DNA of 64,000 bases from an uncultured Thermoleophilia bacterium (GTDB lineage: Bacteria; Actinomycetota; Thermoleophilia; Solirubrobacterales; 70-9), in NCBI GenBank assembly GCA_963718595.1, contig OY970365.1:965994-1029993 (forward strand), written 5' to 3'. The position numbers and the translations under genes were made by a program. Within the stretch, counting starts at the first letter, position 1. Each line of letters starts with the position of its first letter. Positions 1,424-44,333 of this stretch are shown one piece after another. The notes beneath the pieces are model-generated. The model was not told the origin of the DNA and made no database searches. It saw only the letters and a list, made by a program, of their open reading frames with translations.

Positions 1424-1432
1424 ATCTGAATG

Positions 1433-2119
1433 CTTCGGGGGGGTTGGTGAGAGGGGTTGGGGGTCTCTCGTGCTCGCTGGATTTTTCGCCCGGACTCTCG
1501 GATAGCTCTAAGACACGGACAAGCGAAAAATTAACGCCGCTGTGCGCGAGAGACCCCCAACCCCTCCCCTCAGAGCACCTCGAAGATTCCGCTAGCTCCC
1601 AGGGTTCGATCGTTTGCAGTTTGGATCGCTCAAGGGTTCGCTCGTTTGCTCTTGAGATCGCTCCAGGGTTCGCTCGTCTGCCGGGAGAGATCGAGCCCGC
1701 TCCCAGCTGGTGAGTTGCCGGTTAGTTCCGCATAGCGGTAACAACCGGCAACTCGTGAAGGAGGTTTTTGGATGAACCTTGGGGCGGATTGGGCCCTCGG
1801 CTTTCTCTTGAGAGGAGATTGCGTCCCTTGGTCGTCTATCTAGAGAGATTCCGTCCCTTGGCGTCTCTTTGCAGAGATGCCGGACCCTGGGCGTCCCTGT
1901 CTAGGGATCACGGACCCTGGTCCGTTCGTCAGCTTCGAGATGGTCCCGGTTCGCGAGGGACGGTGGGGGTGTCCTCCGTACGAGCGGCGTTAATTTTTCG
2001 CTCGTCCGTTCTCGAGAGCTTGCTGTTGTTCGGGGCGAAAAATCCAGCGAGGGAGGAGGACACCCCCACCGTCCCTCCCGGCCCGAGGGCCGGGGAGAAG
2101 TGCAGCGGCCCGAGGTTGG
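1433..2119 (+). repeat. ~690-bp non-coding composite palindromic repeat, copy 1
   Basis: Near-identical over long stretches to 42340-43055 in the same orientation. Internal parts: hairpin 1451-1566, three forward CCAGGGTTCG-type units (1599, 1631, 1663), central hairpin 1712-1754, four reverse units (ending 1831, 1861, 1890, 1920), hairpin 1955-2077. Confidence 0.9.
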
Positions 2120-2152
2120 GGGGATGCGGCGGCCCGAGGTGCGCTCGCTACC

Positions 2153-40503: not shown

Positions 40504-42306
<1,803 letters not shown>

Positions 42307-42339
42307 GGGGGCGGTTATACCGGGGCGGGGGCGGCTTTG

Positions 42340-43055
42340 TTCGAGGGGGTTTGGTGAGAGGGGTTGGGGGTCTCTCGTGCTCGCTGGATTTTTCGCCCGG
42401 ACTCCCGGATAGCTCTCAAGAGCGGACAAGCGAAAAATTAACGCCGCTGTGCGCGAGAGACCCCCAACCCCTCCCCTCAGACCTCCCGAAGAGATCCGCT
42501 AGCTCCCAGGGTTCGCTCGTTTGCAGTTTGGATCGCTCCAGGGTTCGGTCCTCTGCACTTTTGGCTGGCTCCAGGGTTCGATCGTCTGCCGGGAGAGATC
42601 GAGCCGCTTCAGCTCGTGAGTTGCCGGTTAGTTCCGCATAGCGAGAACAACCGGCAACTCGTGAAGGAGGTTTTGGATGAGCCTTGGGCGGATTGGGCTC
42701 TCGGCCTTCCTCTTGAGAGAGAGATTGCGTCCCTTGTCGTCTATCTAGAGAGATTCCGTCCCTTGTCATCTCTTTGCAGAGATGCCGGACCCTGGTCGTC
42801 CCTCTCTAGGGATCCCGAACCCTGGGCGTCCCTGTCTAGAGATGTCGAACCTCGTTCGTCAGCTTCGAGATGGTCCCGGTTCGCGAGGGACGGTGGGGGT
42901 GTCCTCCGTACGAGCGGCGTCCTCATTTTTGCGCTGCAGCGGTATCTCGGACGGTGGGAGCACTCCCCAGCAAAAATCCCAGCGAAGGTAGGAGGACACC
43001 CCCACCGTCCCTCCCGGCCCGAGGGCCGGGGAGGAGCGCAGCGGCCCGAGGTTGG
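42340..43055 (+). repeat. ~715-bp non-coding composite palindromic repeat, copy 2
   Basis: Same order of modules as 1433-2119: hairpin 42358-42473, forward units at 42506/42538/42571, central hairpin 42618-42660, five reverse units (ending 42736, 42765, 42795, 42825, about 42853), hairpin 42885-43013. Confidence 0.9.
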
Positions 43056-43062
43056 CGAGACC

Positions 43063-43932
43063 CTAGCTCTCTTTGCCCCGCTGGCGCAAAAACCGCTGGA
43101 ACTCACGAGCGATCGTGTCGGCGGAGGGCAGATCCTCGCCCTCAGCGGTCAGGAGGTCGACCTGTTCGGCCTCGATCCGCGCGACCAGCTCCTCGATCTC
43201 GGGATTGGCGGCGACGGCGCGGCCGATCTGCTCCTCGTAGTCGAGCGTTTCCTCCTCCAGATCCGATGCCTCGATGGCGATGCCGGTCAGGCCCTCGAGC
43301 CGGCGCAGCAGCGCCAGCGCCGCCTTCGGGTTGGGGACCGCGGCGACGTAGTGGGGGACGGCTGCCCAGAGCGAGGCGGAGTCGATTCCGGCTTGGCGGC
43401 AGAGGTCGTGGACGACGCCGGTGATCCCGGTCGGGCCCTCGTAATTCGAGCGCTCGAGCTCGAGCTCGTCGACCAGGGACTGGCTCGAGGCGAGACCGCT
43501 GATCGGCACCGGCAGGGTGTGGGAGACCTCGGCGATCAACGCCCCGAGGGTGATCACCATCTCCACGTCGAGGGCATCGGCGGCGGTCGCGATCGTCTCC
43601 GAGAAGGTGCGCCAGCGCAGGTTCGGCTCGGTCCCGTCGAGCAGGATCAGGTCGCGGTCGGCGGTCGGGACGCGGGCGGCGAAGAGGTTGTTCTCCGGCC
43701 AATCGATGCGGCGGGTGTGGCCTTCCTCGAGGGTGATCGTCGGCCGCGTCGACTGGAAGTCGAAGAACTCCTCGGGGTCCACTTTCGCGATCAGCTCGGC
43801 GTCGAGCGAGGCCGCAATCGCCCCCAGCGCGGTCGAGGCCGAGGCCGCGGCGTCGTTCCAGCCGCGAAATGCACAGACCAGCACGGGGGAACGCAGGTGA
43901 GGTAGGTCGCCTTCCCACTTCAGTGATTCCAC
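43063..43932 (-). CDS. PAC2 (proteasome assembly chaperone 2-like) family protein
   Basis: In-frame GTG (cac 43930-43932). LVCAFRGWNDAAASASTA...LLDGTEPNLRW...NYEGPTGITGV is typical of actinobacterial PAC2 proteins. Confidence 0.8.
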   Translation of the reverse strand: MESLKWEGDLPHLRSPVLVCAFRGWNDAAASASTALGAIAASLDAELIAKVDPEEFFDFQSTRPTITLEEGHTRRIDWPENNLFAARVPTADRDLILLDGTEPNLRWRTFSETIATAADALDVEMVITLGALIAEVSHTLPVPISGLASSQSLVDELELERSNYEGPTGITGVVHDLCRQAGIDSASLWAAVPHYVAAVPNPKAALALLRRLEGLTGIAIEASDLEEETLDYEEQIGRAVAANPEIEELVARIEAEQVDLLTAEGEDLPSADTIAREFQRFLRQRGKES

Positions 43933-44333
43933 GCTCTGAGCGTAGACGATGCGGTTGGCCCGCCTATGGGGCCTGAGCGGGCTCGGCGCACTAGCTGCGC
44001 CGCCATGAAAAGCGCCAGCGCCGCGAAGGAGAGCTGCAGCGCTCGTTCGGGGAGCTCGTTGGAGAGGGCCACCCCGGCCAGCACTCCGAGCGGCGAGAGC
44101 ACGCCGATGATCAGCGCCTCGCGCAGGTTGACGTTGCCATAGCCCTTCTGGCGGATCGCGCCAACCAGGGCGACGAGCACGATCATCAACAGCGAGGTCG
44201 ACTCCGCCTCGACCTGGCCGAGGCCGATGAAGATCGTCAGCGCCGGCACGAAGAGGACGCCGCCGCCGACCCCGACGAGGCCGCCGGCGCAACCGCCGGC
44301 GATGCAGATCAGGACCGCCAGGACCTCGTTCAC
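43920..44333 (-). CDS. TauE/SafE (TSUP) family membrane protein, C-terminal-half-like
   Basis: 137 aa, 4 TM. GGCAGGLVGVGGGVLFVPAL motif. GTG start overlaps the upstream half-gene stop (GTGA). Confidence 0.7.
   Translation of the reverse strand: MNEVLAVLICIAGGCAGGLVGVGGGVLFVPALTIFIGLGQVEAESTSLLMIVLVALVGAIRQKGYGNVNLREALIIGVLSPLGVLAGVALSNELPERALQLSFAALALFMAAQLVRRARSGPIGGPTASSTLRAWNH

Follow-up and report, generated by a model that had tools for sequence, protein, structure and literature searches.

REP and BIME repeats have been proposed to protect the 3' ends of mRNAs, to terminate transcription and to act as recombination substrates. BOX elements of Streptococcus pneumoniae, with the arrangement boxA-boxB(n)-boxC, are intergenic, form stable folds, can precede genes and encode no transposase. 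The Correia elements of Neisseria have long inverted arms, are variably present, can be co-transcribed with their neighbours and can mediate rearrangements, and the definition of the MIRU-VNTR loci of mycobacteria is that strains differ in copy number at a given locus. REP/BIME sequences lie outside genes and are found preferentially behind genes, as well as in gaps flanked by convergent or co-directional ORFs, and a conserved, unpaired GTAG or CGTC tag at one end of the palindrome is a criterion for a REP (PMC3733652). An overview of Correia elements (NEMIS) and other MITEs is available (PMC3184786).

The element analyzed here (copy 2) is a non-coding block between a PAC2-family gene and a Ser/Thr protein kinase gene in a window of 64,000 nt, the whole stretch of DNA that was analyzed. 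The host genome, a MAG of an uncultured bacterium of the order Solirubrobacterales, is a single contig of 2.86 Mb with 69% G+C; its actinobacterial class, Thermoleophilia, is, to our knowledge, almost unstudied. A related element (copy 1) is present in the same window. We assign a probability of about 0.7 to the reading that copy 2 is one unexceptional copy of a non-coding mosaic repeat family specific to the genus, this figure covering the whole explanation, including the origin of its present position by recombination.

Anatomy of copy 2 and the repeat family

The first-pass annotation had described copy 2 as filling almost the entire gap between the two genes and copy 1 as lying between two gene ends. 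Both descriptions were confirmed: copy 2 spans the distance from the PAC2 stop codon to near the kinase GTG codon (Table 1), and the genes flanking copy 1 are convergent. The two copies showed a mean column identity of 90% over about 740 alignment columns, and the alignment contained an indel about one unit long. This indel and the positions of the unit cores agreed with the earlier count of five reverse units in copy 2 versus four in copy 1. Words taken from the stems of the large hairpins matched the window at copies 1 and 2 only (chance expectation, approximately 0.01).

Table 1. Features of the copy 2 locus, with copy 1, in window coordinates
Feature	Position	Strand	Remarks
Copy 1	~1430..2140	+	Between convergent genes; aligned to copy 2
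Ser/Thr protein kinase gene	40504..42306	-	GTG start 42306-42304; Pfam Pkinase 3.3e-46
TATAAC box	42314..42319	-	7 nt upstream of kinase GTG; outside repeat
Copy 2, 0.7-kb non-coding element	42325-43062		Between PAC2 stop and kinase GTG
Left leader GGCGGCTTTGTTCG, 14 nt	42330..42343	+	Conserved in 25 aligned copies and in G016 and G014 copies
Left long-hairpin module	42345..42486	+	Arms 42345-42380 / 42451-42486, 36 nt; interior type A, 70 nt
Forward tandem units, three, 32-33 nt, core CCAGGGTTCG	42506..42594	+	Direct repeat families D1, D2
Central REP-like hairpin, 43 nt	42618..42660	+	12-bp outer stem, apex CCGCATAGCG
Reverse tandem units, five, 29-30 nt	42718..42860	+	Cores 42728, 42757, 42786, 42816, 42846
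Right long-hairpin module	42877..43021	+	Arms 42877-42907 / 42991-43021, 31 nt; interior 42908-42990 = allele B
Tail	43013..43062	+	Small GC hairpin CCCGGCCC/GGGCCGGG and one GCGGCCCGAGG unit; abuts PAC2 stop codon
PAC2-family gene	43063..44292	-	Stop 43063-43065; Pfam PAC2 3.6e-58

Three short tandem arrays, a REP-like central hairpin of 43 nt and two long-hairpin modules make up each copy; the long-hairpin modules measure about 140 nt, and the interior of one is inverted with respect to that of the other. The genome contains approximately 25 long copies (450–716 bp, 77–91% identity) and, as solo modules, about 8 long hairpins and about 10 central hairpins; left long-hairpin modules are among those found alone elsewhere in the genome. 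Many extragenic copies of an imperfect palindrome of 20–40 nt, combined in mosaics, are a hallmark of REP/BIME sequences; their counterparts here were the 43-nt central hairpin type and about 25 mosaics with inverted hairpin modules. The left long-hairpin module had a median pairwise identity of 95.7% (24 copies), and the left leader stood directly after a stop codon in most of the other copies.

Unit number varied among the 25 long copies of this genome, from 0 to 3 for the forward units, from 2 to 7 for the reverse units and from 1 to 3 for the tail units, in agreement with the unit-number variation that had been proposed from copies 1 and 2. The five reverse units of copy 2 are unremarkable, because five other copies also carry five. 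In the right module, the stem word GGGACGGTGGGGGTGTCCTCC was identical in copies 1 and 2 and the interiors differed, as had been noted. The description of the copy 2 interior as diverged was correct in that it differs from copy 1, but the difference is not private drift: the interior is the type B allele of six long copies, nearly identical at genome positions 527564, 546124, 1008333, 1750068, 2428167 and 2553239. The B interior was also found inverted and within other stems at two further places, and a third interior type, which is dominant in the sister species G014, occurred once in this genome.

The central hairpin type was found at about 33 genome loci, 2 of which lay within ORF calls. 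Its apex, CGCATAGCG or the complement, was conserved, and the stems covaried, differing in both arms. Individual hairpins of this type were 43–57 nt long (for example, C1:906263-906313, 2383574-2383628 and 2441538-2441594) and had the common apex CGC(A/T)TA(G/T)CG. Their stems, among them GAGTTGCCGG, GAGGTCGC, GGTGGTCGCC and GAGTCCGC, were very different yet fully complementary. The earlier suggestion that structure is kept over sequence was borne out by the alternative stems, which differed in both arms, by the three alternative interiors and by the persistence of hairpin-forming ability. To judge from these copies, modules are shuffled between copies rather than drifting, and the ability to form a hairpin is the persistent feature. 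Comparison within the genome shows arrays that have evidently gained and lost units and hairpin modules that have evidently been exchanged among copies.

Two candidate features were rejected. A small ORF after the central hairpin (AAGGAGG...ATG) was judged non-coding; it was frameshifted between copies 1 and 2, and its ATG was missing in G016. Two 933-aa genes beside two of the copies encode unrelated proteins that have no repeat or transposase features, and the equal length is a coincidence.

For the classification of gaps, genes were called with a third-position G+C filter. Among the 25 long copies, 12 were in convergent gaps, 11 in tandem gaps and 2 in doubtful divergent gaps; convergent gaps make up 18.7% of all gaps, so that their share among the copies was enriched (p = 8e-4). 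A gene 3' end was touched by 23 of the 25 copies, which usually started 0–50 nt from a stop codon. The preference for positions downstream of genes that characterizes REP/BIME sequences was therefore observed here. Copy 2 is one of the co-directional cases, and the copies in tandem gaps were oriented 5 versus 6. The orientation of the copies relative to replication (17 of 25 alike) was not significant and was dropped as a candidate signal.

Turnover among relatives and an inversion beside the kinase

The hairpin module was matched in half of the 24 genomes sampled from the genus. Elements of the sister species G016 had the same architecture with different middle sequences, and the minimal elements of that species keep the central hairpin alone. 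When the flanks of 23 copies were mapped onto the sister species G016 and G014, about 9–11 of the 23 sites were empty or nearly empty in G016, and one was clearly empty in G014. Presence and absence at the same site in close relatives, by which MITEs are recognized, was thus observed. The copy 1 site was empty in G016, where the two convergent stop codons overlap as CTAG, and was filled in G014 with an element of that species' own flavor. The PAC2 site was empty in 9 species (gap of 10–35 bp). Global pairwise alignments of filled versus empty sites were poor, and the junctions were read directly instead.

At common sites, the sister species likewise carried their own hairpin flavor. In 14 comparisons, the same-site copy of the relative gave the best cross-species match only twice, and cross-species scores did not exceed 344 bits, versus 568–983 bits when the 16 full-length copies of our genome were compared with each other. 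Read from these junctions and scores, the comparison shows that sites have been gained or lost between sister species and that copies within a genome are more alike than same-site copies in relatives. Metagenome contigs scanned for the kinase-side junction gave no match. A metagenome scan for the hairpin core returned 13 genuine modules, all of them distant; the same species was not among their sources, and no coding version was found.

Several side observations concern the same sites. In the 25 relatives with a convergent gap between PAC2 and a nuclease gene, this gap is a hot spot: outside the nine species with the short gap, it contains no fewer than five unrelated elements of the hairpin or palindrome kind, or small inserted ORFs of 0.4–1.1 kb. 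In G014, the segment C13:5700-6769 joins the right flank of our copy at 606264 to the left flank of the copy at 546124 through a single element, which could reflect a rearrangement of 60 kb between copies or else a chimeric assembly. For at least eight of our sites, the two flanks lay on different G014 contigs, and several contigs began or ended within a few hundred bases of an element.

The neighborhood of copy 2 differs from that in relatives. PAC2 faces, in convergent orientation in 25 relatives, the orthologue of a gene located at 1734806-1737748 in our genome, which encodes a 980-aa protein with a PD-(D/E)XK nuclease domain. The kinase gene directly follows the orthologue of our gene at 1732940-1734052, which encodes a 370-aa PD40 propeller protein, in 27 of the 28 relatives with enough sequence (spacer of 37–151 bp). 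In our genome, copy 2 (plus orientation) adjoins PAC2 with its right end and the kinase gene with its left end, and another copy, in minus orientation at 1734121-1734793, meets the nuclease gene with its left end and the PD40 gene with its right end. This reciprocal swap of four flanks between two inverted copies indicates a crossover between them, with a probable inversion of about 726 kb. The dnaA gene at 1364091 lies 355 kb from one of the two copies and 370 kb from the other. Since gene-strand bias changes sides near 1.45 Mb, the inversion would be roughly symmetric about the origin. GC skew was too weak to locate origin and terminus and was dominated by the rRNA operons; dnaA and gene-strand bias were used instead. 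Because the closest relative, G014, retains the PAC2/nuclease junction, the inversion would be recent.

In G014 and G016, an element or a fragment of one is present upstream of the kinase gene in the same orientation, so the left part of copy 2 has probably long occupied this position and the right part probably came with PAC2. In the proposed scenario, an ancestral element between the PD40-propeller gene and the kinase gene would have crossed over with an inverted copy between PAC2 and the nuclease gene, and copy 2 would be a chimera, its left part derived from the kinase side and its right part from the PAC2 side. The single inversion in this scenario is reconstructed from other species, and the G014 contig ends inside the kinase-side element. 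Copy 2 is not a dedicated kinase control element, because about 25 copies of the family exist, mostly at gene ends, and because its adjacency to the kinase appears to result partly from recombination. The exchanged flanks show the family copies to be, by all appearance, substrates for homologous recombination.

G016 carried further rearrangements in the same region. Among these, the flanks of our copy at C1:1414124-1414745, about 50 kb from dnaA, were 11 kb apart and in opposite orientation in G016 (C1:2609976-2621301). The G016 flanks of this copy adjoin a G016 composite element, which constitutes a second rearrangement breakpoint at a copy.

Kinase start region, folding and mode of spread

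The first-pass annotation had proposed that the element forms the 5' leader of the kinase transcript or contains its promoter. Orthologues of the kinase were present in 50 of 60 genomes of the genus. An AT-rich hexamer was located 6–8 nt before the start codon in 31 of 31 kinase orthologues, with or without an upstream element, and was the sole conserved feature upstream of the gene in this set. Most of the hexamers read TATAAC; the others read TATAAG, TATAAA, TATATA or CAGAAT. No Shine-Dalgarno sequence was found before the kinase in the 31 orthologues. Actinobacterial -10 boxes have the form TANNNT, and leaderless transcripts are common in this group. Because an AT-rich box is conserved in a 69% G+C genome and a Shine-Dalgarno sequence is absent, the TATAAC box is probably the -10 box of a leaderless kinase promoter located outside the element. 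The hexamer mostly ends in C, versus the usual actinobacterial T, and the -35 position of the putative promoter is weak and falls, at most, within the outermost 14-nt leader of the element. The proposal of a leader or promoter function was therefore not sustained: the conserved box is outside the element and is present in species that lack the element, and a search of both strands of the element found no sigma-70-like promoter.

In many orthologues, the hexamer is in the loop of an imperfect inverted repeat (window 42296-42340, minus strand), the 3' arm of which contains the start codon and GGGGAC codons. In this repeat, 61% of cells were paired versus 56% in shuffles, and RNAalifold found no consensus structure in the kinase start region. 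A leadered kinase mRNA with a start-codon hairpin is possible from this arrangement, and the start region could contain a leaderless promoter, a start-codon hairpin, or both. If transcription proceeded from PAC2, the element would form a very stable hairpin block at the 3' end, terminating or protecting the PAC2 mRNA and insulating the kinase gene.

Folding of copy 2 was far more stable than that of shuffled sequences on either strand (plus, z = -9.8; minus, z = -8.3). The plus-strand RNA was more stable than its complement in 25 of 25 copies, which are not independent of one another, with a mean difference of 33 kcal/mol, because the mismatches in the stems are G-U on that strand (G-T in DNA). 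A G-rich arm always located 5' was discarded as a strand signal, as this holds for any palindrome on both strands. A search for a GC-rich hairpin followed by a T run found 1 site in 1.1 kb, inside the right hairpin, versus 1.0 expected by chance; this test addresses intrinsic (Rho-independent) terminators with a U-tract. A scan with Rfam 15 returned only microRNA-type hairpin noise far below gathering scores.

Searches of the single-contig genome for Y1_Tnp/RAYT (PF01797), rve, DDE_Tnp_1, Transposase_mut, IS110 and TnpB gave no matches; control genomes were detected by the PF01797 search. No multicopy protein genes were found in the genome except for a few high-identity clusters of short ORFs. 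These clusters were at about five loci (near 774, 1254, 2018, 2030 and 2083 kb), which we take to be rRNA operons. Palindromic repeats abound in this genome, although it seems to lack insertion sequences. No target-site duplication was seen at solo modules or in comparisons of filled and empty sites, where poorly conserved junctions could hide short duplications. Terminal inverted repeats of the whole element were absent: the leader GGCGGATTTCGTTCG bears no relation to the GCGGCCCGAGG units of the tail, and the inverted arms are internal only. Neither the genome nor its relatives nor the metagenome matches contained an autonomous or longer, coding version of the element, and plasmid and phage collections contained no similar DNA.

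These results bear on three other explanations. If the element were the 5' leader of the kinase or carried its promoter, the number of units would tune kinase expression. The element ends about 24 nt from the start codon with the ORF open into it, the two sister species also have an element or fragment at this place, the -35 position of the putative promoter is within the 14-nt leader, and the weakly supported inverted repeat at the start codon would need a leader. We nevertheless consider this explanation unlikely: in 27 of 28 relatives the short spacer lacks a full element and the box and start region are still conserved, the same element occurs at 24 other unrelated loci, mostly between gene ends, recombination would have brought in the right half of copy 2, and neither strand of the element has a sigma-70-like promoter. 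A different role at the RNA level, in which the family would consist of structured non-coding RNA genes or RNA-level regulators selected on one strand, would account for the strongly non-random folding, the greater stability of the plus-strand RNA in every copy and the covariation of stems around conserved apices. Palindromes maintained by DNA-level processes covary equally well, however, and the strand asymmetry counts as a single observation because the 25 copies descend from one master sequence. Together with an Rfam result that did not rise above noise, the lack of a promoter-like site and the random orientation relative to flanking genes in tandem gaps, this makes an RNA family very improbable.

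The third explanation, that the element is an active transposon of the MITE type mobilized in trans by a transposase that recognizes the hairpin arms or the iteron-like units, is addressed by the comparisons among species and by the searches described above. Such a transposon would be expected to leave sites that differ in occupancy between sister species, of which one seen here is cleanly empty, highly similar copies within the genome and modules with inverted arms of 36–38 nt, and the inverted arrays of units, spaced by about three helical turns, resemble the multiple binding sites at transposon ends. Set against these features are the junctions examined, none of which showed a target-site duplication, the ends of the composite, which are not inverted repeats of each other, and the failure to match six major transposase families in the single-contig genome, a longer coding version in the genome, relatives or metagenome matches, or any plasmid or phage; on balance, we regard an active MITE as quite unlikely. 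Under the mosaic-repeat reading that we prefer, spread and homogenization would proceed without an enzyme encoded by the element, through some trans-acting function or through recombination and gene conversion.

Relation to described repeats and significance of the family

The family shares with REP/BIME sequences its GC-rich palindromes, its construction as mosaics of inverted hairpins and linker motifs, and its extragenic enrichment at gene ends; as in those repeats, the sequence is specific to a species and homogeneous within one genome. REP/BIME sequences are known from E. coli and other Proteobacteria, whereas the present family is in the actinobacterial class Thermoleophilia, where it has neither the tag nor a RAYT (Y1 transposase) gene. 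No GTAG or CGTC was found by the hairpins, the flanks of which read CGTGAG...CTCACG or GAGTTGCC. The Thermoleophilia modules are also much larger, with hairpins of about 140 nt in a composite of 0.7 kb, and include three tandem arrays.

Conserved end modules combined with variable internal units are reminiscent of BOX elements, the likeness being one of architecture only, with no sequence homology. BOX elements are about 100–300 bp long, occur in another phylum and lack two large inverted hairpin modules; furthermore, an effect on neighboring genes has been shown for some BOX copies. Correia elements are similar in being non-coding repeats with long inverted arms and a presence that varies between relatives, but they are marked by a TA target duplication, by inverted repeats at the two ends of the whole element and by defined promoter and IHF sites, whereas no duplication, inverted ends or promoter-like site was found in the present family. 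Intergenic tandem units of tens of bases, the number of which differs between loci, recall MIRU/VNTR loci; the variation described here is, by contrast, between copies of one genome. Because it has no RAYT gene or tag and no terminal inverted repeats, duplication or transposase, the family falls outside both the RAYT (REPIN) systems and the classical MITEs as these are defined. By analogy, it behaves like the mosaic repeats of the REP/BIME or BOX type.

These findings document a BIME/BOX-like mosaic repeat family in Thermoleophilia, thriving in a genome that is apparently free of insertion sequences. It is set apart from the closest described repeats by the large size of the modules, the three arrays, the missing tag, the lack of RAYT or any common transposase, and the host class, and it turns over fast between sister species. 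A hairpin-rich block before the kinase gene is accordingly no ground for annotation as a kinase regulator. Because many G014 contigs end inside elements, copies of the family fragment short-read MAG assemblies, which is relevant to the assembly of soil Actinomycetota. The family also appears to have reshaped the chromosome through the origin-centered inversion of about 726 kb, and other rearrangement breakpoints were likewise at copies.

The spread and uniformity of the copies without a detectable transposase may reflect a new mechanism, an idea that we put forward tentatively and consider doubtful. It could involve an unrecognized enzyme specific for the conserved apex CGCATAGCG or for the CCAGGGTTCG units; alternatively, copies could arise at gene ends by hairpin-primed copy-and-paste or by gene conversion. 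Because the mismatches take the G-U form on one strand in each of the 25 copies, the structure of the single strand may be under selection. Propagation without a RAYT or a common transposase could make this family more than an ordinary one.
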